The notes under the pieces are model-generated. The model saw nothing but the letters and a program-made list of their open reading frames with translations. It did not search any database and was not told the DNA's origin. Below, in pieces: positions 26,552 through 49,187 of a stretch of DNA of 64,000 bases. The position numbers were made by a program, and so were the translations under genes. Numbering within the stretch: the stretch's first letter is position 1; each line of letters begins with the position of its first letter. Origin of the DNA: a virus (Duplodnaviria; Heunggongvirae; Uroviricota; Caudoviricetes); the IMG/VR virus record IMGVR_UViG_3300020048_000021, positions 105,848-169,847 of that record; one strand, written 5' to 3'.

Positions 26552-26573
26552 CATTTAATTTTGGACAAGTAGT

Positions 26574-27350: not shown

Positions 27351-27375
27351 CTTTTATTTCAACGTCATGTATAAT
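27347..27375 (+). promoter_or_regulatory. sigma70-type promoter TTGACT-17-TATAAT upstream of tRNA-Ser
   Basis: TTGACT 27347-27352, TATAAT 27370-27375. Confidence 0.6.
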
Positions 27376-27400
27376 AGTTAAATAGTAGAGTAAGTAATAC

Positions 27401-27488
27401 GGGTAGTTGCCTGAGTGGTTAAAGGAGCAGTTTGCTAAACTGTCGTCCCGAAAGGGGCGCATAGGTTCGAATCCTATACTACCCGCCA
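27401..27488 (+). tRNA. tRNA-Ser (GCU), type II
   Basis: acceptor GGGTAGT/ACTACCC, anticodon stem GCAGT/ACTGT loop TTGCTAA, variable arm GTCCC-GAAA-GGGGC, T-arm ATAGG-TTCGAAT-CCTAT, G73, CCA. Confidence 0.75.
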
Positions 27489-27505
27489 CTAATTTGTAGT
27501 ACACC

Positions 27506-27579
27506 GCAGGATTGGCATATTGGTTGTGTCCTAGCCTTCCAAGCTAGTCAAAGGAGTTCGATTCTCCTATCCTGCTCCA
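27506..27579 (+). tRNA. tRNA-Gly (UCC)
   Basis: acceptor GCAGGAT/ATCCTGC, anticodon stem CTAGC/GCTAG loop CTTCCAA, T-arm AGGAG-TTCGATT-CTCCT, CCA. Confidence 0.75.
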
Positions 27580-27596
27580 ATTTTTATAGGAAGTGC

Positions 27597-27854
27597 ATGG
27601 CTGTAATAACTGAGGATCGTTTAAAACAATTAATGATTGAGGCTGGTGGATCCATTGATGAGAAATCGTGGGCAATTGCTAGAAAGTTTGCCAGTTTAGT
27701 ATTACAAGATAATGCAAGTCTAAATCCGACAGTTAAAAATTTAACAGAAGATGAAATACTAGAATTATGGGATTGGAATAGTGGTGAAATTTTAGCCACT
27801 GACATTTTAGATTTTGCCAATGCTCATTGGCGAGTTTTATCAGGACGTATTTAG
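27597..27854 (+). CDS. hypothetical protein
   Basis: 85 aa ORF. Confidence 0.4.
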   Translation: MAVITEDRLKQLMIEAGGSIDEKSWAIARKFASLVLQDNASLNPTVKNLTEDEILELWDWNSGEILATDILDFANAHWRVLSGRI

Positions 27855-27863
27855 GAGAAGTAA

Positions 27864-28073
27864 ATGGCACAACGTAATCAAGTTAAAGATCCAAACAAAA
27901 CCAAAACTGGTAAACCCAAGTTAGGTGGATTAACAGTAAGTCAACTCACTACTATGGTTGAAAAAGAAGGTAAGAAGAAAATTAAGGCAAAAATTCTTAA
28001 TCGTATTCGTATTGTAACTAGTCGTAAAGGCTATGTAGCACCAGTTATTGTAGTAGAACCTACAGTAGTATAA
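27864..28073 (+). CDS. hypothetical basic protein
   Basis: 69 aa, lysine-rich, RBS AGGAGAAGTAAATG. Confidence 0.45.
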   Translation: MAQRNQVKDPNKTKTGKPKLGGLTVSQLTTMVEKEGKKKIKAKILNRIRIVTSRKGYVAPVIVVEPTVV

Positions 28074-28084
28074 ATAGTATCAAT

Positions 28085-28160
28085 GCCCGGTTAGCTCAGT
28101 TGGTAGAGCAGCTCACTTGTAATGAGAAGGTCGAGGGTTCGACTCCTTTACTGGGCACCA
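28085..28160 (+). tRNA. tRNA-Thr (UGU)
   Basis: acceptor GCCCGGT/ACTGGGC, D GCTC/GAGC, anticodon loop CTTGTAA, T-arm GAGGG-TTCGACT-CCTTT, CCA. Confidence 0.75.
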
Positions 28161-28164
28161 AATA

Positions 28165-29316
28165 TCAAAGCTTGAATAACTTCAAGTGTTCGTGAATACG
28201 GTTCAATGGTTCATCCCAATCGCCAATAGTTGGCTGTCTAAAAATACGACACGATGGATACCACGGACTGTCTTCACGATGTAGTAACCATCTCCAACAA
28301 TTTCCGAATTGATTCAACGGTAGTAACAATGGTTGACCCATTGCACCAGTTAAATGTGCAACAGCAGTATCAATCGATACGACTACATCTAAATTATGAA
28401 TCAATCCCGCAGTATCATTCCAATTTGTAATCGAAAGTGGATACGTGTTTAATCCTAGTTCAATTAATTTATCAGATTGTTCTTGATCGCAGTCAGCTTG
28501 TAAGCTTATCCATTCATAGTTTGGATTACGTTTAACTAATTCAAGCATCTTTTCAAATGGAATAGACTTGTGTTGATTGATCCAACTGTCACGACGACCA
28601 GACCAACAAAACCCAACTCTAAGTTTAGTTTTGGTACCTAATTTTGTTTGCCAATTCTGAATTGATTGTGGGCCAGCACTGATGTATTTTATTTCAGTTG
28701 GAAGATTCTCATACGTAATTTTTAGTACGCCGGGAATACTCATCATTGAAATCCAGTAATCAAATTCTGGTAATATTTCTTCATAAGAGTATACTTGTAT
28801 TGAATCTTTGAACGACATTTTAAACAGTACTTTAAGCACACTTTCACATTGAATAATGACATCTGTGCCTAATAATTTTAATTGTGTAATGAATCGAGAG
28901 AATTGAATATTGTCACCATGACCCTGTTCACACACAATAAGCAATCGTTTATTGTTTAAATCTTCTCCTGACCATCGTGGTTGTTCAAATCGTGGACTTA
29001 ATCCATTCAAGTGTTCGAATTGCCAACGCTTTTCGTATTGCTCCCATCCACGAGTTAAGTCTCCTGATAGTAAATAAGCAACTGCTAAATTGAATTGAGC
29101 TATGCTGTCAGTTGGATCAATGTCAATGGCACATTGCAAGAATCTGATTGCTCTTTCTGGATGTCCCATTTCTCTAATCACATTACCGTAATTGGTATAT
29201 GCAGAACCTAAGTCAGGAAATTGAGCAAATGCTTGGGCATATAAATCAATTGCATCTTTTGGTCGTGAAGTGGCTCTAAAATGAGCGGCTTGTTCAAATA
29301 GTTCTATTAATGTCAT
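28165..29316 (-). CDS. TPR-repeat protein fused to glycosyltransferase family 9 (heptosyltransferase-like) domain
   Basis: N-terminal TPR-like helices; C-terminal EQGHGDNIQFSRF and DTAVAHLTGAMGQPLLLPL resemble GT9 motifs. Confidence 0.55.
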   Translation of the reverse strand: MTLIELFEQAAHFRATSRPKDAIDLYAQAFAQFPDLGSAYTNYGNVIREMGHPERAIRFLQCAIDIDPTDSIAQFNLAVAYLLSGDLTRGWEQYEKRWQFEHLNGLSPRFEQPRWSGEDLNNKRLLIVCEQGHGDNIQFSRFITQLKLLGTDVIIQCESVLKVLFKMSFKDSIQVYSYEEILPEFDYWISMMSIPGVLKITYENLPTEIKYISAGPQSIQNWQTKLGTKTKLRVGFCWSGRRDSWINQHKSIPFEKMLELVKRNPNYEWISLQADCDQEQSDKLIELGLNTYPLSITNWNDTAGLIHNLDVVVSIDTAVAHLTGAMGQPLLLPLNQFGNCWRWLLHREDSPWYPSCRIFRQPTIGDWDEPLNRIHEHLKLFKL

Positions 29317-29671
29317 GCTAATATTTACTATTATTTCATTCGTTAATTATTTTTATCAGTTTGTCCGAATTTCATTGACTTTATAACAGTTATAAAGTAT
29401 AATAGTTTTATTGATTGAGAAGCAATTCTTAAATCAATCGTGAAGTAAAAGGTAGACGAGGGTAGGCACACAAGTCTCTTGAAAAGACTCATCCTAAGCT
29501 TAGCGTCATGTGTCATGATCTGGATCGCTGATCCACCAAATTGTTTATTGTTGATCATGAATATATGAACCACTGTTTATTGTACTTTGAGCATTGTATT
29601 ATGTTTATTGTCCGGTCTATTACTTGACCTTTTGCCACGTTAAATTTACCAATCACCCAAAGAGAGAAAAT

Positions 29672-30250
29672 ATGAATATTACCCTACGTAAAGCATCAGC
29701 ACTACAAAATCGTATCAACGAAACAATCGCTGATATCAGAATGAACCCATACGTAACTCTGAATGAGTTTCAAGATCCATCGACAATGTTACTTAACGCA
29801 AAAACTACATTGTTTGAAAACGATACTCGTCGTCAACGACTGTTATTGACCATGTATACCATTCGTAGTTTAGTAGCAGCAGCTAATTCTGCTTCGGGCG
29901 TAGACTTAAAGCTGGCAACCGCTGCGTACATCGACAAACGAATTGTACAATTAAACGAGTTGGCTGTATTACAACCACAAGAACCACTAAGTGTCATTGA
30001 GGGTCAGCTTGCTAAGCTCAAAGCTCAAGATACGACTAAGAATCAGCGTAGTATGTACGGTTATGATGACGGTGGAGTAAAGACTTCTGTTATTGAGAAT
30101 GAGCAAATCAAAAGATTTAAACAGGAAATTTTGAATTTGAAAAAGCAAAAGCAAGGCATCAATGATGAAGTTCTTGCACTGAATATCAAAACCGAGATTC
30201 CATTGAGTGAAGAATCGGTGGGTATTTTAACAGAAGAAGGTTTGCTATAA
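29672..30250 (+). CDS. hypothetical protein
   Basis: ATG 29672 after RBS AGAGAGAAAATATG; ORF-track start 29594 is upstream of the RBS. Confidence 0.4.
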   Translation: MNITLRKASALQNRINETIADIRMNPYVTLNEFQDPSTMLLNAKTTLFENDTRRQRLLLTMYTIRSLVAAANSASGVDLKLATAAYIDKRIVQLNELAVLQPQEPLSVIEGQLAKLKAQDTTKNQRSMYGYDDGGVKTSVIENEQIKRFKQEILNLKKQKQGINDEVLALNIKTEIPLSEESVGILTEEGLL

Positions 30251-30257
30251 ATAGATA

Positions 30258-30806
30258 ATGACGCCCGATAACATAAATTCAACATTAATTCAGATTGTAG
30301 ACTCGATTGATGTTGAATCTATTGTAGAATGCTTTCAATCTATGAAAGATATTATTCAATTCACTGAGTCTGGTCACAAGGGCAGTCAATCCGGACTTCA
30401 ATATTTATCAGAAGAAGATCCACATACTAGCGCCGTAGGTCGAGGCAAGGGTCGAGATCATGAATACACATCATTAAATCCCTTATTTGTAGGAACCATT
30501 TTCGAAACCATCATTAATAAATATAAGTTCACACGAACCAGATTAATGTGGGTTAATCATATGTCGTGCTATAGTATGCATAGAGATCCTAGTCCACGAG
30601 TACATATTCCTCTTATCACCAACGAACAATGTTATTTTATATTCAAACATGGATTAATACAGCATTTTCCAGTAGGTTATGTGTATTATACTGACACCAG
30701 ACACGATCATACATTTGCAAACTGTTCAGAAGAAAGACGATTACATTTAGTTGGCGCAGTTGATGATAATTGGATAACTGATAGATTGACAATAAATAAG
30801 AATTAA
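30258..30806 (+). CDS. hypothetical protein, possible cupin/2OG-Fe(II) oxygenase-like
   Basis: MHRDPSPRVH and HDH segments. Confidence 0.3.
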   Translation: MTPDNINSTLIQIVDSIDVESIVECFQSMKDIIQFTESGHKGSQSGLQYLSEEDPHTSAVGRGKGRDHEYTSLNPLFVGTIFETIINKYKFTRTRLMWVNHMSCYSMHRDPSPRVHIPLITNEQCYFIFKHGLIQHFPVGYVYYTDTRHDHTFANCSEERRLHLVGAVDDNWITDRLTINKN

Positions 30807-30814
30807 GTTATAAT
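30786..30814 (+). promoter_or_regulatory. sigma70-type promoter TTGACAATAAATA-17-TATAAT upstream of tRNA cluster, overlapping the end of the previous gene
   Basis: TTGACA 30786-30791, TATAAT 30809-30814. Confidence 0.6.
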
Positions 30815-30833
30815 AGTTTTATAGTAAAGAAAT

Positions 30834-30909
30834 GCTCCTCTAGCTCATCGGTTAGAGCAGGAAACTCATAATTTCTTGGTACCGTGTTCGATTCACGGGG
30901 GGAGTACCA
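30834..30909 (+). tRNA. tRNA with CAU anticodon (Met or Ile2)
   Basis: acceptor GCTCCTC/GGGGAGT, D GCTC/GAGC, anticodon stem GGAAA/TTTCT loop CTCATAA, T-arm CCGTG-TTCGATT-CACGG, CCA. Confidence 0.7.
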
Positions 30910-30914
30910 AATAT

Positions 30915-30989
30915 TCGCGCGTAGTTCAACGGATAGAACAGGGGATTTCTACTCCTCTGATGTGGGTTCGATTCCTGCCGCGCGAACCA
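30915..30989 (+). tRNA. tRNA-Arg (UCU)
   Basis: acceptor TCGCGCG/CGCGCGA, D GTTC/GAAC, anticodon loop TTTCTAC, T-loop TTCGATT, CCA. Confidence 0.7.
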
Positions 30990-31013
30990 GAATTCGTAGT
31001 AAATAGAAATAAT

Positions 31014-31098
31014 GCGAGAGTGGTGGAATTGGTATACACAAGGCGCTTAAAACGCCTCGCCGTAAGGATTATGGGTTCAAGTCCCGTCTCTCGTACCA
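31014..31098 (+). tRNA. tRNA-Leu (UAA), type II
   Basis: acceptor GCGAGAG/CTCTCGT, D GTG/CAC with GAATTGGTATA loop, anticodon stem AGGCG/CGCCT loop CTTAAAA, long variable arm, T-loop TTCAAGT, CCA. Confidence 0.75.
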
Positions 31099-31099
31099 T

Positions 31100-31175
31100 G
31101 GATCGTTAGCTCAGCGGTAGCAGCGGCGCCTTTACACGGCGTAGGTCGTAGGTTCGATCCCTACACGATCCACCA
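31100..31175 (+). tRNA. tRNA-Val (UAC)
   Basis: acceptor GGATCGT/ACGATCC, anticodon stem GCGCC/GGCGT loop TTTACAC, T-arm GTAGG-TTCGATC-CCTAC, CCA. Confidence 0.75.
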
Positions 31176-31952: not shown

Positions 31953-32057
31953 TGTTGTAAAAAAACAACACTTTTGCCCCCTTAGTCTTTAGAGACTTTG
32001 GGGGTTTTTTATTGCTCCGAAAATGCTTGACATTAAATCAAAAACAGTCTATAATGT
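31953..32057 (+). promoter_or_regulatory. PeSL-like cassette: palindrome TGTTGTA-N5-ACAACA, rho-independent terminator (31977-32010) and promoter TTGACA(32029-32034)-17-TATAAT(32052-32057)
   Basis: CCCCC...GGGGG hairpin followed by TTTTTT; exact promoter boxes. Confidence 0.65.
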
Positions 32058-32368: not shown

Positions 32369-33238
32369 ATGATCACGGTACGCGGCTTTGAAGATAAATT
32401 CTGGACATTTCCCGGTGGGGAACGTTCAGTCAAATTAACCCCGAATGAAAAACAAATTGCTACACAACGAGTTTTTGATGCCACGCCCGCTGGCGAATGG
32501 CCTGTATTTGAAATGCGTATGGACTTTCGTGGTTCAGACGATTTAGTGGATATGATGCTGGCAGTAAACGCTCTACGCAATGCGTATGGGCATGAAATTG
32601 AGTTAACATTGAATGTGCCATATTTCCCATTCTCTCGTCAAGATCGTGTGATGACTGGTGGAGAGTCGTTTGGACTTCAAGTGGTTGCTGATATGATTAA
32701 ACTGTGCAATTTCAAACGTGTTACTACGCTTGATATTCACAGTGATGTAGCTCGCGCAATGTTCCCAGCAGGCGTGTTTGGGAATGTATCGCAAGACACA
32801 GTGTGGGCTACTCGCATCAAAGACTTGACACACTTGGCAGAGTTGGAACTCAACGGAAAAACCGTTATTGTATCGCCTGATGCCGGCGCACTCAAGAAAA
32901 TTTACAAAGTAGCCGCTGCTACAGGATTGCCAGTAGTAGAGGCTAAAAAGATTCGTGACGTTGCCACAGGGCACATTGTCAAGACTGAAATTGATGGCTC
33001 ACAACTTAGTGAGTTTGAACAAGTAGTTATCGTTGACGATATTTGTGACGGTGGACGTACATTCGTAGAACTTGGTAAAGTCATTCGTGATAGCGGGTTT
33101 CGGGGTAGATTAGTACTGTGTGTAACTCACGGTATTTTCTCGAAAGGTCTGGATGTGTTTACTGAGTACTTTGATGAAATTCACACAGTAAACAATATCG
33201 GTGGGGTTGATCTGGTCGCATTTAATAGTGTAAAGTAG
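32369..33238 (+). CDS. ribose-phosphate pyrophosphokinase (PRPP synthetase)-like enzyme; candidate ADP-ribose pyrophosphate synthetase (Adps) of NARP1
   Basis: PRPP-synthetase/PRTase-type architecture including VVIVDDICDGGRTF PRPP-binding loop; directly upstream of NAMPT-like gene. Confidence 0.6.
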   Translation: MITVRGFEDKFWTFPGGERSVKLTPNEKQIATQRVFDATPAGEWPVFEMRMDFRGSDDLVDMMLAVNALRNAYGHEIELTLNVPYFPFSRQDRVMTGGESFGLQVVADMIKLCNFKRVTTLDIHSDVARAMFPAGVFGNVSQDTVWATRIKDLTHLAELELNGKTVIVSPDAGALKKIYKVAAATGLPVVEAKKIRDVATGHIVKTEIDGSQLSEFEQVVIVDDICDGGRTFVELGKVIRDSGFRGRLVLCVTHGIFSKGLDVFTEYFDEIHTVNNIGGVDLVAFNSVK

Positions 33239-33267
33239 TTGACAATAAATCAGTATTTTGATATAAT
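33239..33267 (+). promoter_or_regulatory. sigma70-type promoter TTGACAATAAATC-17-TATAAT in front of the NAMPT-like gene
   Basis: TTGACA 33239-33244, TATAAT 33262-33267. Confidence 0.6.
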
Positions 33268-33298
33268 ATTTACATAGACTAAAGAAAAGGAAAAGAAA

Positions 33299-34798
33299 AT
33301 GAAAATTACAGCACTCACTTCAATGGACTCGTACAAACTGGGTCACGGGGAAATGTACCCCGAAGGCACTACTAAAGTTTACTCAAACTTTACTCCACGT
33401 TCGCTCAAGCATTTGAACATGCCTGATCACTGGAAAGCAGATAACAAAATTGTTTGGTTTGGATTGCAAGGTTTTCTGCACGAACTCAACACAGTTTGGA
33501 AAGAGACATTTTTCGATTTACCCGAAGATGAAATTTGTGACGAGTTTCTTGAATTCGTAGCACCATTTGTCGGGCCCAACGGTTTCAATATTGAACGTAT
33601 TCGTGAATTACATCGTATTGGATACTTGCCACTTGAAATCAAATCTCTGCCAGAAGGATCACGAGTGCCGATTGGTGTGCCAGTATTGACGGTTACTAAC
33701 ACTGTAGCATCAGCATTTTGGTTGCCTAACTTTCTTGAAACATGGCTCTCTGCTGAGTTGTGGAAATCATCGACTTCTGCCACAATGGCACGAGTATATC
33801 GTAAAATTATCGACTCATACGCTGATGCTACAGGCGGCAGCAAAGAGTTTGTCGTATGGCAAGGTCATGACTTCTCAATGCGTGGCATGTCCGGTATTGC
33901 CGATGGTGCAAAATCGGGTGCTGGTCATTTGTTGAGTTTTCTTGGAACTGACGTACTATCAGCAGTCAAGTATGTCAACGACTACTACCATGGTAAATCA
34001 ACCTTTGTTGGTGGTTCGGTGCCTGCTAGTGAGCATAGCGTAATGAGTTCTTCTAGCCGTGATGCTGAGTTGGATACATATCGCTACATCTTGAGCAAAT
34101 ACCCAAGTGGTGTTGTCTCACTTGTATCAGATACATACGACTTTTTCCAAGTGATCACAACATACGCCACGATTCTCAAAGATGATATTCTGAATCGTAC
34201 TCCTGACTCACTTGGCTTGGCTAAAGTTGTGTTTCGTCCTGATTCGGGTGATCCAGTCAAGATTATCACTGGCGATCCAGAGGCACCAGCGGGTTCACCT
34301 GAACATAAAGGTGCTGTTGAATGTTTGTGGGAAATCTTTGGTGGCACAGTAAACAATAAAGGGTACAAAACTCTGAATCAACGTGTTGGTCTTATCTACG
34401 GAGATTCGATTACCATTGAGCGTTGCAAAGATATCCTGTTTATGTTGGCCGCTAAAGGATTCGCAAGTGACAACATTGTATTTGGTATCGGTTCGTACAC
34501 GTATCAGTTTGCTACTCGTGACTCGCTTGGGTTTGCTATGAAAGCTACTCATCGTGTTACTAACGGCGAAGGTGTTGCTATCTTTAAGGATCCTAAGACT
34601 GATTCTGGTACTAAGAAATCTGCTCGTGGCTTACTGTGTGTACATCGTAGCCCACTCTCAGGTGACTATGTATTAGTTGATGGTGTCACAGTAGAAGCCG
34701 AACGTTGTGGTGAGTTGAAGACTGTGTTTCTTGACGGTCAGATTCTTGTTGACGAGACATTTGAAACTATTCGTAAAAGGTTGACAGATAATGCTTAA
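33299..34798 (+). CDS. nicotinamide phosphoribosyltransferase family protein (NadV/NAMPT-like; candidate Namat of NARP1)
   Basis: 499 aa with N-terminal TSMDSYKLGH-type NAMPT motif and overall NAPRTase/NAMPT family length and layout. Confidence 0.7.
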   Translation: MKITALTSMDSYKLGHGEMYPEGTTKVYSNFTPRSLKHLNMPDHWKADNKIVWFGLQGFLHELNTVWKETFFDLPEDEICDEFLEFVAPFVGPNGFNIERIRELHRIGYLPLEIKSLPEGSRVPIGVPVLTVTNTVASAFWLPNFLETWLSAELWKSSTSATMARVYRKIIDSYADATGGSKEFVVWQGHDFSMRGMSGIADGAKSGAGHLLSFLGTDVLSAVKYVNDYYHGKSTFVGGSVPASEHSVMSSSSRDAELDTYRYILSKYPSGVVSLVSDTYDFFQVITTYATILKDDILNRTPDSLGLAKVVFRPDSGDPVKIITGDPEAPAGSPEHKGAVECLWEIFGGTVNNKGYKTLNQRVGLIYGDSITIERCKDILFMLAAKGFASDNIVFGIGSYTYQFATRDSLGFAMKATHRVTNGEGVAIFKDPKTDSGTKKSARGLLCVHRSPLSGDYVLVDGVTVEAERCGELKTVFLDGQILVDETFETIRKRLTDNA

Positions 34799-34976
34799 AG
34801 CACTACTATCATTTATAGCATTATTTTGGGTATTTTATTATGGTATTATCGGACTCAGGTTTGTTACCAAAAAGCAAGCATGGGAGTGGACTAAAGTTTT
34901 AACAATTAGCGCAGTATGTTCTGCATTATCCATCGTAGTATTAACAACTTTCGTTATTTTATTCTAAGGAAATTAT

Positions 34977-35774
34977 ATGAAACAAATTTTTAAATTAGCA
35001 ATCGTAGCAGGTCTAATCGCAACCACAGTTGGTTGTACCCGTATTGAAACCGGCGAAGTCGGTGTACGAGTTGGCTTTGATAAACAGGTAAAACCAGGTG
35101 AATTGATGCCAGGTTCATTCAATCAAACCTTAATCGGTGATGTACTTACATTTCCTATCCGTGATGTGTCAGTTAAGATTGATAACATGACTCCCTTGGC
35201 TCAAGACAACAGCACCATGAAAGACATGGATGTCACTGTTATCTACAACATCACTCCCGCACAGGTTAGTGAATTGTATGTGAGCAAGAACCGTAGCTTC
35301 CACGTTGTCCACAACGGCGATACTTATTTGATGTACAACTACATATTCAATGCCGCACGAAATGCTGCCTACAAAGCTGCTCGTAAGTATGACGCATTGA
35401 CCATGAACGACAGTCGTGCCCAAATGGAACAGGACATGAAAGAAATCATTGCCAAGACATTGGCTGATGAAAATCTTGCGGGATCAATTACCGTGAGTCA
35501 AGTTCTTATTCGTGCCCTTACACCGGCGGATTCTGTTGTGGCAAGTGCCAACGAATTGGTTCGCTCCAAGAATGAATTGCTGCAAAAAGAAGTTGAAGTT
35601 AAGACCGCCGAAGCAGAATCTCGTCGTATGGCAGCACTTACCAACCAAAGCTCAGCCAGCATTGCTTACATGAACGCTCAGGCTGCGTTGAACATCTCTG
35701 AAGGTGTTAAGAACGGCAAAGTCCAGACTATTATTGTTCCAAGCAATATGACTGGTTTGATGATTGGAAAATAA
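34977..35774 (+). CDS. SPFH/band-7-like lipoprotein
   Basis: signal peptide with lipobox VGC, then TGEVGVRVGF... pattern typical of SPFH domains. Confidence 0.45.
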   Translation: MKQIFKLAIVAGLIATTVGCTRIETGEVGVRVGFDKQVKPGELMPGSFNQTLIGDVLTFPIRDVSVKIDNMTPLAQDNSTMKDMDVTVIYNITPAQVSELYVSKNRSFHVVHNGDTYLMYNYIFNAARNAAYKAARKYDALTMNDSRAQMEQDMKEIIAKTLADENLAGSITVSQVLIRALTPADSVVASANELVRSKNELLQKEVEVKTAEAESRRMAALTNQSSASIAYMNAQAALNISEGVKNGKVQTIIVPSNMTGLMIGK

Positions 35775-35775
35775 A

Positions 35776-36375
35776 ATGGAAGAAATAATTGCGCTATCAA
35801 TTATCGCAATTCTTCTCATTGTTACCATCATCGGTGCTATTCTACTGCGAAGACGTTTTGTTCGCAGTAGAGAGAAGAAATTAACTCAAATAAAAGAGCA
35901 ATGGGAACAAGCTGAATCTCAAGAACGGCAGCGTTTTAAAAAACAGACCGAGTTATTGGCTCAGGCTCGTTCAGAAGAAGAAATACAGTTACGAGATCGT
36001 GCCGAACGACTGCGTATTAAAGGAATGCAAAATGTAACTCCAACATATCCAAATCTTGGTAATGCTGGAGCACAGAGATATGACACTAAGACTGGTACTA
36101 TCCAAACTGTGGTTTATGATAATAAAACTAACGACACTCAATGGAGAACGATTGGTGGCAGCGGTGGGACTACATCAGCGCAACCTGTTACTAATTCCAG
36201 TACCGATTTGTTTACAGGAATGGCTATAGGGAGTTTGGTAAATAGTCTTTTCAGTACACCATCATATTCAAGACCTAGTTCAGATGATAGTGATAGTCAA
36301 AAGTCGGTATCTAGTAGTTCTAGTTCTAGTAGTTGGAGTGATAGCTCAGACAGTGGTCCTAGTTCGGATTGGTAG
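35776..36375 (+). CDS. membrane-anchored protein with serine-rich C-terminus
   Basis: ATG 35776 after upstream TAA; N-terminal TM helix; SSSSSSSSWSDSSDSGPSSDW tail. Confidence 0.45.
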   Translation: MEEIIALSIIAILLIVTIIGAILLRRRFVRSREKKLTQIKEQWEQAESQERQRFKKQTELLAQARSEEEIQLRDRAERLRIKGMQNVTPTYPNLGNAGAQRYDTKTGTIQTVVYDNKTNDTQWRTIGGSGGTTSAQPVTNSSTDLFTGMAIGSLVNSLFSTPSYSRPSSDDSDSQKSVSSSSSSSSWSDSSDSGPSSDW

Positions 36376-36400
36376 TATAAAACAAATACAGGAAAATAAA

Positions 36401-36631
36401 ATGGATAATACAATTAGAGAATCAAAATATAAAGTTGGTGACATTGTTAATATTTTATATTACAAAGATATGACTGAGAAAGTACTATCCCCTGATTCCT
36501 TTACAATAACAGAGGTAGTATATGATCTTAATAAACATACTAGTGATACTCATATGTATGTTGCTAAAAACGACCACGAATTCGGATTTTGGTTTGAATC
36601 GGAGCTAGTTCTTTGTAATCAAGGAGAATAA
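36401..36631 (+). CDS. hypothetical protein
   Basis: ATG 36401 with RBS CAGGAAAATAAAATG; ORF-track start overlaps upstream gene. Confidence 0.4.
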   Translation: MDNTIRESKYKVGDIVNILYYKDMTEKVLSPDSFTITEVVYDLNKHTSDTHMYVAKNDHEFGFWFESELVLCNQGE

Positions 36632-36632
36632 A

Positions 36633-36824
36633 ATGAACAATAAAATTTCAGTGCAGTACAATGGACAGTTAGTGGGTTCAATTGATACAAACTCAACAAT
36701 GACTACTCAAGAAATTGAGAATATGGCTATTCAGCATTTGAGTATTGCTGATCAGCTAAATGGTTTATCAGCTACTAGATTTATTCACGTACCTGAAAAA
36801 CTTATCAATGTAATTGGAGCATAA
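36633..36824 (+). CDS. hypothetical protein
   Basis: 63 aa ORF, RBS. Confidence 0.4.
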   Translation: MNNKISVQYNGQLVGSIDTNSTMTTQEIENMAIQHLSIADQLNGLSATRFIHVPEKLINVIGA

Positions 36825-36825
36825 A

Positions 36826-36978
36826 ATGGAAACACAACAGCTATTAAACGAAGGTATTCTCAGATTTGGAATTGAATCACGAGATGTCTCAGTGGATGGA
36901 CACTGGGTGGGTGTAATTTGGAATGAAGTATGGCGACTCGCCGGAATTATTGTCGATGGAGAAACTAATGACAACACG
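36826..36978 (+). CDS. hypothetical small protein (50 aa)
   Basis: ATG 36826 after upstream TAA; below ORF-track cutoff. Confidence 0.3.
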
Positions 36979-37411
36979 TAGAGGATTTTTACAAACAATG
37001 GGGGCAGTATTCGGGTCAACAGTGCTGCCAGCAGGGGCAGTCGCGTCTGTAGCGTCAGCAGCACCCGTAGCAGAAGTAGCGGTTGGAGTAATGGCAGCGG
37101 CCGCAGTTGTTCGACAGTTCAAAACATCAATGGTACTTGACCCACAAACACTTGAGCCAAAAATTGCTGTTTCCGTTACAGAAAATGGAGAGAGACACGC
37201 TCTAGCTGGTTGTACATATTTAAATGAGGTCAAGATTGATGGCAAAACCCCATTGGAATTTATCGATAATTCAACACCTGAGAAACGTCAAGAATCACAA
37301 AATCTATTAGATGTGGTTGTTATTCGTGAGCAACTTGAACGTCAGGGTTTACCGCCATTGACCGACTTTGAGGCCGCGCTGCTCATGGCACGAGAAGGAG
37401 AAACAGCATGA
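36968..37411 (+). CDS. exported protein with twin-arginine (Tat) signal peptide
   Basis: N-terminus MTTRRGFLQTMGAVFGSTVLPAGAVASVASAAP fits the S/T-RRxFLK Tat motif with AxA-like cleavage region. Confidence 0.5.
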   Translation: MTTRRGFLQTMGAVFGSTVLPAGAVASVASAAPVAEVAVGVMAAAAVVRQFKTSMVLDPQTLEPKIAVSVTENGERHALAGCTYLNEVKIDGKTPLEFIDNSTPEKRQESQNLLDVVVIREQLERQGLPPLTDFEAALLMAREGETA

Positions 37412-37878
37412 GTCAATATAAATTCTTTTGGAGTGGACCATTCAGTCAATGGTTCAAGAGTTCATTCGTTATTGATGGAAAAACATTCAATACGTGTGAA
37501 CAGTGGATGATGTGGAACAAAGCTATGTTATTTCAAGATACTGAAATTGCAGATGCTATTCTTGCAACGTCTGATTCTAAAAAACAAAAAGCATTGGGTC
37601 GTCAAGTTAAAAACTTTGTAGATTCAGTTTGGATGAACGTCGCATATGACATCGTTGTCCGAGGCAATCGTGCCAAGTTTGAACAGAATCCAGAACTATA
37701 TAGCGAATTAGAAAAGACCAAAGGTCTGACTCTAGTTGAAGCTAGCCCACTTGACAAACGATGGGGAATTGGAATGGCTGAAGATGAAGAAGGAGTCGAA
37801 GACTCTGCAAATTGGAAAGGTGAGAATTTGCTAGGTAAAGCAATTACTCAAGTTCGTATGGACATGTTTCAAAGTTAA
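37408..37878 (+). CDS. NADAR (YbiA-like) domain protein
   Basis: FFWSGPFSQWF... CEQWMM... VVRGNRAKFEQNPEL... LVEASPLDKRWGIG matches conserved NADAR/DUF1768 blocks. Confidence 0.65.
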   Translation: MSQYKFFWSGPFSQWFKSSFVIDGKTFNTCEQWMMWNKAMLFQDTEIADAILATSDSKKQKALGRQVKNFVDSVWMNVAYDIVVRGNRAKFEQNPELYSELEKTKGLTLVEASPLDKRWGIGMAEDEEGVEDSANWKGENLLGKAITQVRMDMFQS

Positions 37879-38447
37879 TGAACTACGAAGCTATTTGGAA
37901 AAAGTGGTCTGAACGCTTTGGGTGGCAGCCGTTAGAGATTAAATTCACTAACAATTGGCGTGATTGTGTTCACATTCAAGACGTGACTCTAACTGATAAT
38001 AAGATATGGTATATGTCATTTATGTCTGAAGATGGCAAAGCCAGTAGCAGTTATCGATTAAGTCTTCAAAGTTCTCGACTTGAATGTACTTTAACCGAAT
38101 ATGAAGTAGAATGGAGATTACGTAATTTATTCATGCAATTTGAGACTCTTGATCGTGCCAATTTAGTATCTCATGTTGCGAAATCATACAGTGAGTATCA
38201 CTATAAAATTCAAGAATACTATAGTGATAAAGTGGATTTTCATAGATTAGTAAGTGCCGGCAGCAGAGTAGCACACGTTAGTAGACGAGGTCGTGGCAAT
38301 GTGTTTTTCAAGAATAACATCTTGTTGTATGTGGGTAAAAACAAGTATGATGCTGGTATTATTGTTGGTCAAAAACATGATAAATTTGGTATCTTCACGT
38401 TGGACGATAAACATACATGGAAAGATTACGGGATTAGAATGATATGA
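37878..38447 (+). CDS. hypothetical protein
   Basis: 189 aa, ATGA coupling. Confidence 0.4.
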   Translation: MNYEAIWKKWSERFGWQPLEIKFTNNWRDCVHIQDVTLTDNKIWYMSFMSEDGKASSSYRLSLQSSRLECTLTEYEVEWRLRNLFMQFETLDRANLVSHVAKSYSEYHYKIQEYYSDKVDFHRLVSAGSRVAHVSRRGRGNVFFKNNILLYVGKNKYDAGIIVGQKHDKFGIFTLDDKHTWKDYGIRMI

Positions 38448-38833
38448 AAGTTACAAAAATTTTAGTTAGTGAAATAGGTCGTCCAAACCCTAATGGCAGA
38501 GTATATACTGCTACTGAAATTCAACGAGCAATCAACGAAATTAAAAATAAGATTGACGGTAGAAAATTACTAGGGGAAATCGGTGTCGCTTTATATGGTC
38601 ACGTTAATCTTGATCAAGTATCACACATAATTGACAGACTGTGGATCGAAAATTATAAACTTTATGCCGATGCTACATTACTAGATACGCCAAGAGGTCT
38701 AGTGGCACAACATCTATTTTCTCAAGTATCACCAAGTGTCAAATTTGGAATTAGAGGAACTGGAATAATCAATGAATCTTTTTTGGTGTCAGACTTGACA
38801 ATAATTGCAATAGATGTTATACTGAAAGCATAA
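38444..38833 (+). CDS. hypothetical protein
   Basis: 129 aa, ATGA coupling. Confidence 0.4.
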   Translation: MKVTKILVSEIGRPNPNGRVYTATEIQRAINEIKNKIDGRKLLGEIGVALYGHVNLDQVSHIIDRLWIENYKLYADATLLDTPRGLVAQHLFSQVSPSVKFGIRGTGIINESFLVSDLTIIAIDVILKA

Positions 38834-38847
38834 ACTTAATATAGAAG

Positions 38848-39144
38848 ATGAAAATGAAAACATATACTATGAAACAAATTGTAATTTTTTTAAATTATAC
38901 TCAGTTGGCGGGTGACGAACGAATTAAATTTGCAGAAACGTTGTCAGACGAAGAAGCCAAGGAATTATTTCAGTTTGTGTTAGACTATATGATTCATATT
39001 ACTGTGTCTCGATTTGTAAATCCACAAGTAAATGAAGTCAGTGAAGTTGAAGAAACTGATAGTCTTTCAGATTTATTTAAAGATGAACTTGATAATTATC
39101 CTGAAGCAAACGAAATTATCAACAAAATAAAGAACATGAAGTAA
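38848..39144 (+). CDS. hypothetical acidic protein
   Basis: 98 aa ORF. Confidence 0.4.
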   Translation: MKMKTYTMKQIVIFLNYTQLAGDERIKFAETLSDEEAKELFQFVLDYMIHITVSRFVNPQVNEVSEVEETDSLSDLFKDELDNYPEANEIINKIKNMK

Positions 39145-39162
39145 ATTAGAAAAGGAAATAGT

Positions 39163-39525
39163 ATGAACGAACAGACTAGAATTAAACAACTAATTGAACA
39201 GTGTGAACAAGATACTCAGTATCTTGTTCAGGATCTTTCCAGTGATAGCTTTCTATACAGACTTGTCGAATTAACTATTGAAGATTGTGTTAATAAGATT
39301 GAGAATTTAAAAGATATTACTAATGATGCTTTAAAAACCAATAATTTTCAATGGAATACTTACAAAGAAACATTGAATCTTGTTGTTAAGGTGATAAAAA
39401 GAACAACTACTACTGATGAAGAATTACAGAAATATCGTTCAAAGATTATCGATGATGAAGGATATTGTCTAGTATGTGGCGAAACGTGGAATAGTGATTG
39501 CGGTTGTGCTTTGGAGTTAAAATAA
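39163..39525 (+). CDS. hypothetical protein with C-terminal Cys cluster
   Basis: CLVCGETWNSDCGC motif, 120 aa. Confidence 0.4.
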   Translation: MNEQTRIKQLIEQCEQDTQYLVQDLSSDSFLYRLVELTIEDCVNKIENLKDITNDALKTNNFQWNTYKETLNLVVKVIKRTTTTDEELQKYRSKIIDDEGYCLVCGETWNSDCGCALELK

Positions 39526-39983
39526 TGAATATTGTAAAAGGTAATTTATTAACGTTAGCAGTTAACGGTAAGTTTGATGTTATTGTACAGGGCTGTAATT
39601 GCTTTTGTGCAATGGGTGGTGGTATTGCTCGTGAAATTGCTGAACGTTTTCCAGAAGCTGTACTAGAAGATAATAAAACTACCAAAGGTGACTACAACAA
39701 ATTAGGTAATTACACACAAGTCGAAATTGACGATACGTTTATCCTGATTAACGCTTACACTCAATATGCATTGAGTAATGGAAATGATGTATTTGAATAC
39801 GATGCTTTCAAATTGATTCTACAGAAATTAGCACGAGAATACCCAACCGCTCGTTTTGGTTTTCCATTAATTGGCATGGGTTTGGCTAATGGAAATAAGA
39901 CTCGTATCATGGGAATGTTGGCTGAATTTTCAGAGAAAATTGCTGAGTTTGGTGGGACGTTCACACTCGTAGAATTTGAATAA
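39525..39983 (+). CDS. macro domain protein (ADP-ribose binding / deacylase family)
   Basis: GNLL...DVIVQGCNCFCAMGGGIAREI matches the macro domain signature (compare E. coli YmdB VNAAN...GGGGVDGAI); TAATG overlap. Confidence 0.65.
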   Translation: MNIVKGNLLTLAVNGKFDVIVQGCNCFCAMGGGIAREIAERFPEAVLEDNKTTKGDYNKLGNYTQVEIDDTFILINAYTQYALSNGNDVFEYDAFKLILQKLAREYPTARFGFPLIGMGLANGNKTRIMGMLAEFSEKIAEFGGTFTLVEFE

Positions 39984-39986: not shown

Positions 39987-40041
39987 TGTTGTTTTTATAC
40001 AACAGTCATAAGTTGACAATAAATCGATAATCGATTATAAT
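39987..40041 (+). promoter_or_regulatory. PeSL cassette: palindrome TGTTGT-N-ACAACA + promoter TTGACA(40013-40018)-17-TATAAT(40036-40041); ATG only 6 nt downstream
   Basis: sequence read. Confidence 0.65.
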
Positions 40042-41804: not shown

Positions 41805-42836
41805 ATGAGAAAGATGGCAACAATTCGTCGTATTGACGAACTAAACCCTATTGAGGGTGCTGATAAAATTGAAGTGGCTACCGTTGGTGGATGGAAAGTC
41901 GTGTGTCAGAAAGGATTGTATGTAGTTGGCGATCTAGCGGTATATTGTGAGATTGATAGTTTCATTCCCACTGCCATTGCTCCATTCCTGACTCGCGACG
42001 GGCATTACCCCAAGACGTATGAAGGTATTGAAGGTGAACGTCTTCGCACTATCAAGTTGCGTGGGCAAATCTCTCAAGGATTGTTACTGCCCTTGAGTGT
42101 TCTTGCTGTTAATACTTCTTCAGGTGATTATCTTGGTGACTGGGAACAGTTTGAGAATGAAGATGTAAGTGAGAATCTTGGCATCGTCAAATACGAACCG
42201 CCAATGTCAGCACAACTTGCTGGTGTCGCTCGTGGTAATTTCCCAAGTCAGATTCCAAAGACTGATCAAGAACGTTGTCAGAATCTGAAGCGTGAGATTT
42301 CTCAAGCTGGTGATACTACGTTCGAGGTTACTGAAAAGTTAGACGGTTCATCAATGACTGTATATCTGATTGATGGTGTCTTTGGTGTATGTTCACGCAA
42401 TCTTGATCTGAAAGAAAGTGAAGGAAATACTTTTTGGAAAGTTGCTCGTGAGTTGGATCTTGAAACTAAGATGCGGACTATGGGTGATAACTTTGCTATT
42501 CAAGGTGAACTAATTGGCGAAGGAATTCAAAAGAATATCTACGAAATCAAAGGTCATAAATTCATGGTATTCGATATCTATGATATTGTCGTGGGTGATT
42601 ATATGATTCCAGACATGGTTCGTACTATCTGCAAAATGCAGAACTTGAACCACTGTCCTGTTATTCTGCCTCACGGTTCAGTAAATCATACTATCGATGA
42701 ACTGCTTGAATTAGCAGAAGGAAAGTCTGAGCTGAATGTCAAGACTGAGCGTGAAGGTTTAGTATTCAAGGCAGTGAATGGTAGTTTTACATTCAAGGCT
42801 ATCTCAAATAAATTCTTATTAAAGCACGGGGATTAA
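41805..42836 (+). CDS. ATP-dependent RNA ligase (KxDG nucleotidyltransferase superfamily, Rnl2-like)
   Basis: motif I EKLDGSSMTVY; N-terminal OB-like region; RBS AAGGAAATATTATG. Confidence 0.55.
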   Translation: MRKMATIRRIDELNPIEGADKIEVATVGGWKVVCQKGLYVVGDLAVYCEIDSFIPTAIAPFLTRDGHYPKTYEGIEGERLRTIKLRGQISQGLLLPLSVLAVNTSSGDYLGDWEQFENEDVSENLGIVKYEPPMSAQLAGVARGNFPSQIPKTDQERCQNLKREISQAGDTTFEVTEKLDGSSMTVYLIDGVFGVCSRNLDLKESEGNTFWKVARELDLETKMRTMGDNFAIQGELIGEGIQKNIYEIKGHKFMVFDIYDIVVGDYMIPDMVRTICKMQNLNHCPVILPHGSVNHTIDELLELAEGKSELNVKTEREGLVFKAVNGSFTFKAISNKFLLKHGD

Positions 42837-43511: not shown

Positions 43512-43943
43512 ATGAGACTAATCTTGATTCGTGGATTGCCGGGAAGTGGCAAGTCTACTCTTGCTCTTCAATTGATGTCATCAAATGGATTAACTTGCGC
43601 TCAACATTTTGAAGCAGATCAATATTTTATGGAAGATGGCGAATATAATTTCAACGTCGACCATTTACATTTGGCTCATAAATGGTGTCAAGATAAGACT
43701 CGTGATGCACTACAAGCTAACTGCGATGTGATCGTGTCTAACACATTCACAACCGCAAAAGAACTAAAATCGTATTTTAAAATTGCAGCAGAATACGATA
43801 TAGTACCTCAAGTAATTCTATGTCAGGGTTCTTGGGAAAGTGTACATAATGTACCAACTGAGGTTTTAGTCAAAATGAAAAATCGTTTTGATTATGATAT
43901 CACACGTTTATTTGAAACGTTAATTAACGATAAAGGAAAATAA
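43512..43943 (+). CDS. P-loop polynucleotide 5'-kinase-like protein (kinase domain only)
   Basis: LILIRGLPGSGKSTLA Walker A resembling T4 Pnk ILTIGCPGSGKSTWA; only 143 aa, no phosphatase domain. Confidence 0.55.
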   Translation: MRLILIRGLPGSGKSTLALQLMSSNGLTCAQHFEADQYFMEDGEYNFNVDHLHLAHKWCQDKTRDALQANCDVIVSNTFTTAKELKSYFKIAAEYDIVPQVILCQGSWESVHNVPTEVLVKMKNRFDYDITRLFETLINDKGK

Positions 43944-48018: not shown

Positions 48019-49173
48019 ATGCAATTTAATAAAACTTTAGTCGCATCAGCAGTACTCGCAATGGGCACAACTGTAGCGCAAGCAGCAGATTCGTCTGTAA
48101 CGCTTTACGGTGTTATCGACGCTGGATTTCAAGTATCTACTCAGAGTTTGGCCAATGGCTATTCAACGAGCAACGTAGGTATTGCCAGTGGTGTTCAACA
48201 AGGAAACCGATTTGGTATCAAAGGATCGGAAGATTTGGGAAATGGTCTACGTGCCACATTCACTCTTGAGTCTGGATTCAATCTTGGAAATGGCGCAAGT
48301 CAACAAGGTGGAACACTTTTCGGACGTCAATCATGGGTTGGGTTAGAAAGTGACAAATTGGGCTACGCTCGTTTGGGTAAACAATATAACTTTGCCACTG
48401 ACTACGTTGGTGCTATTGATCCATTCTTGTTAGGCTTCGGTCAAGCTAACATTGGTGCTACATTCGGTGCTGCCAACACTACACGTTACAACAACATGAT
48501 CAAATATCAATCACCAACATACTCAGGATTCACTGCTGGTGTCGGTTATTCATTTGCTAGTGGTCTAAGCACAGTCTACGCCGATAATGGTGCTGTAGCT
48601 GCTGCAAACACTTACAATTATGCTACAAACAACAACACTCGTGTACTGACAGTTGGCGGAAAATACGCAAGCGGTCCATTAACAGTGGTTGCTTCGTATG
48701 ACGTAATGTATGGTGCTGACAACGTAGTTGGTTCTAATGCCGCTAATCCAAAACAATGGATCTTCGGTGGAGCGTATGACTTCACAGTTGTAAAAGTTGC
48801 AGCCGCATATAGCCAAACCCGAAATGGTTGGATTAATGGTCAAGCTAGTGTAGACCCAACATTCAGTACTAATGCTTATGGTGGTGGTGCAGGTGGTGTA
48901 TTGTTCGACACTAACTTTGGTGCTAACAGCTACATGTTAGGTGCTACTGTTCCAGTAACAGGCGCTCAAAAAGTATTTGCATCATATCAGTATGCTACTC
49001 CAATTACAACATTGGCTAATGCTACTAACTTGAGCATCTACTCTGTTGGTTATCAATATGACTTCTCTAAGCGTACAAATGCGTATGCCTATGTTAGTCA
49101 GGCTCAGAACTATGCCTTCTTAGACGGTGCTAAAAGCACAGTTTATGGTGTAGGTTTACGTCACCAGTTTTAA
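48019..49173 (+). CDS. Gram-negative general porin (Porin_4 / Neisseria-Burkholderia type)
   Basis: signal peptide MQFNKTLVASAVLAMGTTVAQA, mature start ADSSVTLYGVIDAGF, alternating beta-strand pattern, C-terminal RHQF. Confidence 0.7.
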   Translation: MQFNKTLVASAVLAMGTTVAQAADSSVTLYGVIDAGFQVSTQSLANGYSTSNVGIASGVQQGNRFGIKGSEDLGNGLRATFTLESGFNLGNGASQQGGTLFGRQSWVGLESDKLGYARLGKQYNFATDYVGAIDPFLLGFGQANIGATFGAANTTRYNNMIKYQSPTYSGFTAGVGYSFASGLSTVYADNGAVAAANTYNYATNNNTRVLTVGGKYASGPLTVVASYDVMYGADNVVGSNAANPKQWIFGGAYDFTVVKVAAAYSQTRNGWINGQASVDPTFSTNAYGGGAGGVLFDTNFGANSYMLGATVPVTGAQKVFASYQYATPITTLANATNLSIYSVGYQYDFSKRTNAYAYVSQAQNYAFLDGAKSTVYGVGLRHQF

Positions 49174-49187
49174 TCCAAGGGATAACA

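Follow-up and report, generated by a model that had tools for sequence, protein, structure and literature searches.

Candidate accessory NADAR and macrodomain enzymes in a phage NAD+ reconstitution locus

The window analysed here comprises 64,000 nucleotides of viral DNA (IMG/VR record IMGVR_UViG_3300020048_000021, positions 105,848 to 169,847) and is read as an early accessory region, rich in tRNA genes, from a large uncultured phage with a genome of at least 170 kb. Its plus strand encodes Adps and Namat, the two enzymes of the NAD+ reconstitution pathway NARP1, followed by a NADAR protein (37408-37878) and a stand-alone macrodomain protein (39525-39983). With moderate confidence, the two latter enzymes are considered to be accessories to NAD+ reconstitution in a locus expressed early, both yielding ADP-ribose (ADPR) for Adps and Namat. 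All components are of known kinds, and the locus is a further example of counter-defence modules already described.

According to the mechanism proposed, Adps would phosphorylate ADPR to ADPR pyrophosphate (ADPR-PP) once a NADase defence of the host has fired, and Namat would join ADPR-PP and nicotinamide to NAD+; these reactions are taken from the literature, whereas NARP1 itself was identified in the window by homology. The macrodomain protein may strip the 1''-phosphate from ADP-ribose 1''-phosphate (ADPR-1''P), a product of RES-type NADases that would be unusable by NARP1, and thus release ADPR. The NADAR protein may cut N-glycosidic ADP-ribosyl linkages (e.g., the guanine-ADP-ribose made by DarT1), equally with free ADPR as product. 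Both would thereby allow the phage to reverse a broader spectrum of NAD+-directed attacks by the host, and would deliver the single substrate required by Adps and Namat. The logic proposed is the same as for RyDEP, a glycosidase with a RyR domain that is inserted as an accessory enzyme in NARP1 of mycobacteriophages and makes linear ADPR (bioRxiv 10.64898/2026.05.28.727677). RyDEP has, however, an unrelated fold and cuts the O-glycosidic ribose-ribose bonds in 2'cADPR and 3'cADPR (cyclic forms of ADPR), whereas NADARs cut N-glycosidic bonds.

The Adps and Namat genes

Adps (32369-33238, plus strand; 289 amino acids; phrog_619, E-value 1.9e-70) resembles phosphoribosyl pyrophosphate (PRPP) synthetases and adjoins Namat (33299-34798, plus strand; 499 amino acids), the Nampt-like nicotinamide ADPR-transferase, after a gap of 60 bp that contains a promoter. 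Namat shares 47.9% identity over 98% of its length with the characterised Namat of Bacillus phage SPbetaL1, and its alignment to that protein shows that the catalytic R306 is kept. In the helix of the selectivity clamp, whose positions define the specificity for ADPR-PP (PMC12774641), SPbetaL1 F392 and Y396 are represented by Y and F, i.e., both residues are aromatic. The loop position R40 is occupied by lysine, a variant described in the same publication. Adps is 29% identical to the Adps of SPbetaL1 (E 5e-15), and its matches to the Pfam models Pribosyltran_N and Pribosyltran are weak (28-29 bits, compared with 100 bits for a true phage Prs). Because the identity of Namat, its retained arginine and clamp residues, and the resemblance of Adps to SPbetaL1 Adps together with low PRPP-synthetase scores all concur, 32369-34798 is, as judged from sequence, NARP1 (Adps and Namat) and not a housekeeping PRPP synthetase with NAMPT. 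The sequence-only reading, which had named a PRPP-synthetase/NAMPT pair here, is to be amended in this respect, whereas it placed the two other genes correctly a few kilobases downstream of the NAD module: The NADAR gene starts 2.6 kb and the macrodomain gene 4.7 kb past the Namat stop codon.

The NADAR protein

The predicted product of 37408-37878 (plus strand; 156 amino acids) is an N-glycosidic ADP-ribosyl hydrolase of the NADAR superfamily and of the type of its YbiA subfamily. It scores 157.9 bits against Pfam PF08719 (cut-off 35.1; E 3.3e-46) and 147.4 bits against the YbiA-type model TIGR02464 (cut-off 73.7), and its sequence matches the PDB entries 8BAU (4.7e-14) and 2B3W (YbiA; 5.6e-7). 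An AlphaFold2 model with a predicted local distance difference test (pLDDT) score of 96.4 exhibits the alpha+beta fold of NADARs; a Foldseek search with it returned 8BAU (PnNADAR of Phytophthora) at a template modelling (TM) score of 0.83 and YbiA at 0.80, and no other significant match. Residues E31, K38, E111, D116 and W119 align with E43, K50, E125, D130 and W133 of PnNADAR, whose ADPR-binding residues are known from Schuller et al. (PMC11543638), and are invariant among 36 homologues. With the catalytic E31 and the full E/K/E/D/W set present, the site looks intact, and both the gene and the domain call of the sequence-only reading are borne out by profile, fold and catalytic residues.

The protein is thus similar in fold and active-site set to E. 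coli YbiA and to PnNADAR, but differs from them in being phage-encoded and stand-alone, in having Ala79 at the non-conserved position of PnNADAR R93, and in a gene context of NAD salvage rather than of riboflavin synthesis or the SOS response. At position 111, glutamate is typical for the YbiA subfamily, whereas DarT1-linked NADARs possess aspartate and the T4-type NADARs of phages histidine. For the superfamily, the substrate class that has been demonstrated is guanine-ADP-ribose in DNA, a product of DarT1, which several of its subfamilies hydrolyse (PMC11125620, PMC11543638). The divergent NADARs of Bas32 and Bas60, which are phage NADARs not of the T4 type, neutralise DarT1 (PMC11825919); both findings are precedents for the activity proposed here.

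Concerning phage NADARs of known function, the comparison is closest with AdfN (T4 gp30.3 and the NADARs of Bas32 and Bas60; PMC11825919), likewise an early-expressed orphan NADAR of phages. Glutamate and lysine are seven residues apart in both (E31/K38 in the window, E36/K43 in T4). The window protein is, however, probably not an orthologue of T4 gp30.3: Similarity is restricted to remote profile matches (hhalign probability 72%, E 3e-5), the YbiA-type E111 is found in place of the histidine, and many of its relatives are embedded in NAD-salvage operons, which is unreported for AdfN. The assignment as T4-type AdfN was rejected because the direct BLASTP comparison with the T4 protein is not significant. 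NADARs of Vequintavirus-type E. coli phages are about 38% identical to the window protein. The latter also matches the PADLOC candidate-defence model PDC-M42C (E 1.7e-42), which shows that such NADARs are found in candidate defence loci of bacteria, too.

The macrodomain protein

The stand-alone macrodomain protein (39525-39983, plus strand; 152 amino acids) is Poa1p-like and belongs to the family that includes Adpp and Tk.4/AdfM (phrog_335, 9e-39). Its family assignment cannot rest on Pfam, since the match to PF01661 comprises residues 21-61 only and stays with 18.8 bits below the cut-off of 22. The fold search, in contrast, is unambiguous: The AlphaFold2 model (pLDDT 87) has a macro fold with 143 PDB matches at E<=0.001, among which Poa1p ranks highest, ahead of DarG and TARG1; nearly all of the best 50 matches are macrodomains. 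Poa1p is also the best PDB sequence match (3.7e-4; 4.9e-6 with a profile). Both the gene and its macrodomain, as called by the sequence-only reading, are therefore real. As start codon, ATG 39525 is favoured over TTG 39498, given that homologues begin with MNIVKG; a GGAG box and a TAATG overlap with the upstream open reading frame (ORF) further back this choice.

The ADPR-binding residue N25, the Gly-rich G31-G33 loop after strand 2 and the second loop P-x-I-G-x-G-L-A-x-G (P114 to G123, with I116-G117-x-G119) are conserved in 40 homologues, such that the site looks intact. DarG and TARG1 share with the window protein the fold subclass (Foldseek TM 0.64-0.71) and the ADP-ribose-binding loops, whereas their catalytic lysine (DarG K80, TARG1 K84) is replaced by Q80, a glutamine that is invariant in the family. 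The aspartate of TARG1 is presumably missing, too, with alanine in its place. Furthermore, the 152 amino acids of the window protein include no DarT-binding C-terminal domain, a DarT partner is absent, and the score against the NCBIfam DarG model is 18.6 bits (cut-off 250). DarG-type chemistry was rejected because the catalytic lysine is absent.

Two published functions are attached to close relatives. Adpp is a Poa1p-like macrodomain protein present in 15% of NARP1 operons, with Adps-Adpp-Namat of Vibrio phage Gary as prototype; it converts ADPR-1''P, the product of aRES NADases, to ADPR and is required against aRES (bioRxiv 10.64898/2026.01.28.702374). Vibrio phage Thalassa, which is of the same genus and possesses the same three-gene operon (Adps-macro-Namat, gp183-184-185), was used as proxy for Gary. 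Its gp184, the Adpp orthologue, is 28% identical to the window protein (BLASTP E 3e-17; hhalign 99% over 142 columns). Tk.4 of T4 (AdfM; bioRxiv 10.1101/2025.11.20.689424), of the same PHROG, is 33% identical (E 2e-17), and a comparison of Tk.4 with gp184 gives 6e-20; tblastn matches in T4-like phages fall under the annotation tk.4. Tk.4 (L173, 4423-4890), gp184 (L166, 3498-3971) and the window protein all have glutamine at the position of DarG Lys80 (L-numbers are labels of fetched homologous loci, about 250 in all). Tk.4/AdfM and the Adpp orthologue are thus one family, roughly equidistant from the window protein, and since one family carries both functions, sequence alone does not decide between Adpp and AdfM; the gene neighbourhoods are more helpful in this respect.

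The locus resembles NARP1-AP of Vibrio phage Gary (Osterman et al.) in combining Adps and Namat with a stand-alone Poa1p-like macrodomain protein that has full-length homology to the Thalassavirus Adpp orthologue, and in the nearest relatives of the window the macrodomain gene directly follows Namat. It differs by the position of this gene 4.7 kb and 11 genes downstream rather than between Adps and Namat, by the identity of only 28% to the Thalassavirus protein, by glutamine at the position of Poa1p His23, and in that the closest relatives of the macrodomain protein are mostly found in NARP2-type loci. With AdfM, the window protein has in common phrog_335, a similar length and the motifs CNCF..MG.G, NKLG, Y(T/G)Q and IG.G; T4, however, is devoid of a NARP locus and its tk.4 adjoins tk, whereas a link to NAD salvage exists for the window gene and for most of its relatives. 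The sequence-only reading had thought of a reversal of ADP-ribosylation or a clearance of ADPR-derived signals. For this macrodomain family next to NARP1, however, a function in clearing cyclic ADPR signals or in taking ADP-ribose off proteins is less supported than the dephosphorylation of ADPR-1''P as described for Adpp.

Gene neighbourhoods in related phages

Loci centred on homologues of the window genes were collected from IMG/VR, neighbours were counted within 10 kb, and loci were dereplicated at 90% identity. Concerning the macrodomain gene, 64 of 80 loci contain a Nampt-family gene (51 of 60 after dereplication, in 33 of these 60 within 700 bp). Beyond the three closest relatives, these loci possess a true Nampt together with NMNAT-Nudix and no Adps, i.e., they are of the NARP2 type. 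The macrodomain gene is wedged between NMNAT-Nudix and true Nampt in L055 (8475-11930) and in most of L007-L083, a context not addressed in the Adpp paper. An ADPR-1''P phosphatase in NARP2-type loci is explained only if ADPR is recycled further through Nudix, Prs and Nampt.

Among 80 loci centred on NADAR homologues of 48-55% identity, 35 contain Nampt/Namat, 25 Adps and 24 a macrodomain gene (24, 17 and 13 of 61 after dereplication). The control, consisting of loci centred on the RNA ligase whose gene is situated 7 kb past that of Namat in the window, yielded Nampt/Namat in 7, Adps in 1, a macrodomain gene in 4 and NADAR in 0 of 61 lineages. In Fisher tests of NADAR against control, Nampt/Namat has p = 7e-4 and Adps p = 5e-5, values which are indicative only because the lineages are not phylogenetically independent. 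In eight lineages, NADAR is situated between Adps and Namat (five with the order Adps-macro-NADAR-Namat, two with Adps-NADAR-Namat, one with Adps-NADAR-macro-Namat), and the L088 locus was confirmed with Pfam. The 26 linked NADAR lineages exhibit 15 gene orders, always on a single strand. Ten of the 13 best-scoring NADAR loci in IMG/VR are NARP-linked, and the isolate Stenotrophomonas phage RAS14 has its NADAR between NadM and Nampt. Iyer et al. (2022) had already reported that macrodomain and NADAR genes co-occur in large phages and that phage NADARs can adjoin NadV and NadM.

The linkage of NADAR to NAD genes is not obligatory. Of seven closer metagenomic homologues (59-71% identity), two have an NMNAT-Nudix/Nampt pair at a distance of 2.5-4 kb. 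Another has a macrodomain gene 0.7 kb away, without NAD genes nearby, and one adjoins an SPFH gene, as does the NADAR of the window; for the other three, NAD-salvage genes are absent within 8-10 kb. In five of these seven contexts (L167, L169, L171, L176, L178), a protein of 250-310 amino acids with a C-terminal Zn_Ribbon_1 domain is encoded about 0.1-0.8 kb downstream of NADAR; a similar Zn-ribbon protein is found in the window at 62879-63886, 25 kb from NADAR. The wider NAD+/ADP-ribose island suggested by the sequence-only reading is hence supported as a functional tie, by conserved neighbourhoods that are enriched over the control and by recent literature, but not as one compact island, as NADAR resides in a mosaic cassette whose nine other genes show no ADP-ribose link, and only about 40% of related NADARs are NARP-linked.

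Because NADAR occurs between Adps and Namat in the eight dereplicated lineages, a more specific idea may be put forward, which we regard as rather improbable: Besides Adpp and RyDEP, the YbiA-type NADAR could represent a third type of enzyme that feeds NAD+ reconstitution in phages, by hydrolysing N-linked ADP-ribose products of host immunity to free ADPR. Its possible substrates include two Thoeris signals, His-ADPR and N7-cADPR, as well as canonical cyclic ADPR (cADPR) and base-linked ADPR on nucleic acids. The small-molecule N-ribosidase activity attributed to YbiA-type NADARs (the name of NCBIfam TIGR02464; Iyer et al. 2022) fits this idea, and the literature searched contained no experimental link of NADAR to NARP1 or to Thoeris signals.

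Observations against a feeder role, and a possible DarT alternative

Several observations weigh against the view that both enzymes feed NAD+ rebuilding. H23 and S30 of Poa1p, the residues mutated in the PDB entries 6LFS and 6LFT, correspond to Q22 and A29 in the window protein; histidine at the first of these positions is found in Thalassa gp184, T4 Tk.4, L006, and five of 40 close homologues. The anti-DarTG2 protein Tk.4/AdfM is as close to the window protein as is the Adpp orthologue. Under the definition in the Adpp paper, the macrodomain gene is within two genes of an Adps/Namat pair, a range that the eleven-gene distance in the window exceeds. The prevalence of NARP2-type loci among close macrodomain relatives is equally adverse, as an ADPR-1''P phosphatase is not obviously needed there. 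No NADAR was detected in the 80 macrodomain-centred loci, and the reserve due on the Fisher values and the proximity of only two of the seven closer NADAR homologues to NAD genes point in the same direction. Finally, the stretch 34777-39515 with the NADAR gene is without counterpart in the closest relatives (L004, L005, L006).

The main rival, which seems possible but clearly less probable, is a dual kit against DarT toxins. Here, NADAR would act like AdfN on the guanine-ADP-ribose of DarT1 and the macrodomain protein like AdfM/Tk.4 on the thymine-ADP-ribose of DarT2, both protecting phage DNA replication, and the proximity to NARP1 would merely mirror a shared early accessory region. In T4, gp30.3/AdfN indeed counters DarTG1 (PMC11825919) and Tk.4/AdfM counters DarTG2 (bioRxiv 10.1101/2025.11.20.689424). 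The sequence relationship of the macrodomain protein to Tk.4 (33%, E 2e-17) agrees with such a role, and the NADAR relatives with about 38% identity belong to the Vequintavirus-type phages, the group of the active AdfN of Bas60 (PMC11825919). In four loci (L177, L128, L137, L147), moreover, NADAR and macrodomain genes are paired without an NAD gene within 10 kb. This has to be set against the invariant glutamine at the position of the catalytic Lys80 of DarG, and against the fact that AdfM is known by its phenotype, its biochemical activity being putative. DNA repair does not predict that the macrodomain gene is tightly wedged in operons of NAD salvage, with Nampt/Namat no more than 700 bp away in 33 of 60 lineages, the NADAR is remote from T4 AdfN (by BLASTP and hhalign as well as by glutamate instead of the T4-type histidine), and YbiA, the prototype of its subfamily, failed to protect cells from DarT1 (PMC11125620). 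A role against DarT toxins and the feeding of NAD+ rebuilding can coexist because both reactions release ADPR. Nor are they mutually exclusive in view of the promiscuity of macrodomains at the C1'' position, as found in viral macrodomains.

The cassette between Namat and the macrodomain gene

The NADAR gene forms part of a variable cassette of 4.74 kb (34777-39515, plus strand) in the slot between Namat and the macrodomain gene, as delimited by blastn breakpoints and junction alignments. The left breakpoint is situated within the last ca. 25 codons of Namat, the right one about 8 nt before the ATG of the macrodomain gene, and neither repeats nor hallmarks of mobile elements were seen at the junctions. 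L004 and L005, which share 93% nucleotide identity across NARP1, and L006 have the arrangement Adps-Namat-macro with a slot of 0.5 to 1.2 kb: In L004 and L005, the macrodomain gene is the third gene, 0.5 kb after Namat, and the slot of L005 (9482-9992) contains two small membrane proteins, whereas that of L006 (1.2 kb; 8816-9999) contains ORFs of 59, 118 and 219 amino acids. The cargo of the window consists of eleven genes, in an arrangement that recurs on three metagenome contigs.

The cassette begins with orf58 (34791-34967), a small membrane protein gene, followed by a gene for an SPFH/Band_7 lipoprotein-like protein (34977-35774; Pfam Band_7, 1.5e-20; no ADP-ribose link found), a pair also present in L059 and L011. 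An SPFH gene is likewise located 1-2 kb upstream of NADAR in L169/L170 and L100. Five ORFs (35764-37411), namely orf203/199, three small ones and orf162/147, gave no match in Pfam, PHROGs, NCBIfam or PADLOC and are without homologues in the fetched loci; orf203/199 has a transmembrane segment and a Ser/Asp-rich tail, features shared by a 111-amino-acid ORF of L005. Downstream of NADAR, orf189 (37878-38447) is translationally coupled to it but is not a conserved NADAR neighbour, and orf129 (38444-38833; 129 amino acids) is similar to the central part of a head-maturation protease (phrog_207, 5.8e-17; Peptidase_S77, 18.9 bits and below the cut-off) and forms part of an early-gene cassette distant from any structural genes of the window. 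The last two genes are orf98 and orf120 (38848-39525), the stop codon of the latter overlapping the start codon of the macrodomain gene. All these genes are on the plus strand. With an ATGA overlap of orf162 and NADAR and a TAATG overlap of NADAR and orf189, the genes orf162-NADAR-orf189-orf129 constitute a string of overlapping start and stop codons, and orf98-orf120-macro a second one. For orf189, orf98, orf120, orf162 and orf203, no credible match was found in Pfam, PHROGs, NCBIfam, PADLOC or PDB sequences and no homologue in the approximately 250 fetched loci, and within these libraries and loci there is no evidence that they belong to the system.

NADAR might also be an unrelated passenger that entered, along with the SPFH gene, as part of a mosaic cassette and came to lie between Namat and the macrodomain gene by chance, though this appears unlikely to us. 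The cassette is missing from the three related loci, its other genes show neither a link to ADP-ribose nor a conserved association with NADAR, the closest NADAR homologues travel with SPFH or Zn-ribbon genes (five of seven without an NAD gene nearby), and in the isolate Vibrio phage phiKT1024 NADAR is found next to nrdD/G and not between NAD genes. An incidental position is, however, at odds with the enrichment of Adps and Namat/Nampt around NADAR relative to the RNA-ligase control, with the insertion of NADAR between the two core NARP1 genes in eight lineages and with many gene orders, with the NARP linkage of ten of the 13 best-scoring loci, and with the NadV/NadM neighbourhood noted independently by Iyer et al. 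(2022).

Genomic setting, promoters, and RNA repair

A megablast search of 32-42 kb of the window against 50,697 deposited phage records gave zero matches, and thus no annotated close relative exists among them. A contig of 169,847 bp encodes a protein identical to the NADAR. The gene run of the window is on the plus strand. Perfect TTGACA-N17-TATAAT sites occur 16 times (expectation 0.08), exclusively on the plus strand and including positions 6762, 7065, 10570, 17255, 21643, 30786, 32027, 33239, 40013, 40283 and 63948; most of the 16 share the extended motif TTGACA[AGT]TAAATC, and they have the appearance of one family of strong early promoters of the phage. One (32027-32055) precedes orf89 and Adps, one (33239-33267) is the promoter between Adps and Namat, and one (40013-40041) opens the next transcription unit past the macrodomain gene, whereas the promoter-like site upstream of orf98-orf120-macro (38795-38823) agrees at 11 of 12 positions and has a TG extension. 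All four are on the plus strand, and the NARP1, NADAR and macrodomain genes are predicted to be driven by strong early promoters of the sigma-70 type.

The window contains 32 tRNA genes (11447-31175) in clusters with small ORFs between them; two of the calls are odd, viz. a 71-nt 'tRNA-???' with a 2-nt anticodon (18452-18522) and a 95-nt tRNA-Ile(tat) (22391-22485). Auxiliary genes in or near this region encode a radical SAM enzyme (19642-21033) and an R2K-clade ATP-grasp protein (26574-27350); further ones encode a nitroreductase (59439-60092), a GatB/YqeY-domain protein (60496-61023) and a MazG-like PRA-PH pyrophosphohydrolase (61500-61874). The window encodes a Gram-negative porin (Porin_4, E 4e-44) and, after it, an OmpA-family protein (48019-49736); this pair recurs in the related 371-kb contig L171 (492-2286), there directly upstream of the NMNAT-Nudix/Nampt genes. 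A Nuc_deoxyri_tr2 protein (PF15891, 117 bits; 55903-56382) has a homologue in contig L177 (15995-16483), 5.5 kb from NADAR.

A set of genes reminiscent of RNA repair is present as well, consisting of a T4 Rnl1-like ligase (24106-25014), a second RNA ligase with a PHA02142 OB domain (41805-42836), an AAA_33 kinase (43512-43943), a calcineurin-like phosphoesterase (49815-50603) and an Rv2179c-like 3'-5' exoribonuclease (12819-13319). That the macrodomain protein clears ADPR-1''P from tRNA repair (the role of yeast Poa1p after Tpt1/KptA) and NADAR processes by-products of RNA repair, both in the service of the nearby RNA ligases, is very improbable: Poa1p as best structural match, the two ligases, the kinase, the phosphoesterase and the 32 tRNAs would suit it, and a link of this kind is discussed by Iyer et al., but the scanned ORFs (most of those of at least 90 amino acids) revealed neither KptA/Tpt1 nor a 2H phosphoesterase or a sirtuin, an RNA ligase is near the macrodomain gene in 12 of 80 loci as against 64 of 80 for Nampt/Namat, and a macrodomain gene accompanies the RNA ligase in just 4 of 61 ligase-centred lineages. 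Among window ORFs of at least 90 amino acids, no KptA/Tpt1, no Alt/Mod-like ADP-ribosyltransferase (ART), no sirtuin, no Nudix and no NMNAT was found, by which the RNA-repair explanation is weakened; the window represents only 64 kb, as against a genome size of at least 170 kb. The same result weakens a further candidate, a regulation of ARTs of the phage itself by the two enzymes. Both the passenger and the RNA-repair explanations are weaker than a feeding of NAD+ rebuilding and than a defence against DarT toxins.

Implications

NAD+ depletion and ADP-ribosylation are among the commonest anti-phage strategies of bacteria, and the phage NAD+ reconstitution pathways NARP1, NARP2 and NARP3 with their accessory enzymes were first described in 2024-2026. 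The window adds an environmental phage lineage in which NARP1, a Poa1p-like macrodomain protein and a NADAR are combined, with the slot between Namat and the macrodomain gene as a swap site for accessory cassettes. The macrodomain protein belongs to a family with two published functions, Adpp and AdfM, and occurs in NARP2-type operons more commonly than in those of NARP1. The neighbourhood statistics, evaluated against a control, identify phage NADARs of the window type as recurrent members of NAD-salvage operons. If the proposal of NADAR as a third feeder were true, such an enzyme would at once destroy an immune signal or lesion and recycle its ADPR to NAD+ via Adps and Namat, and in NARP2-type loci the corresponding route would lead through Nudix, Prs and Nampt.

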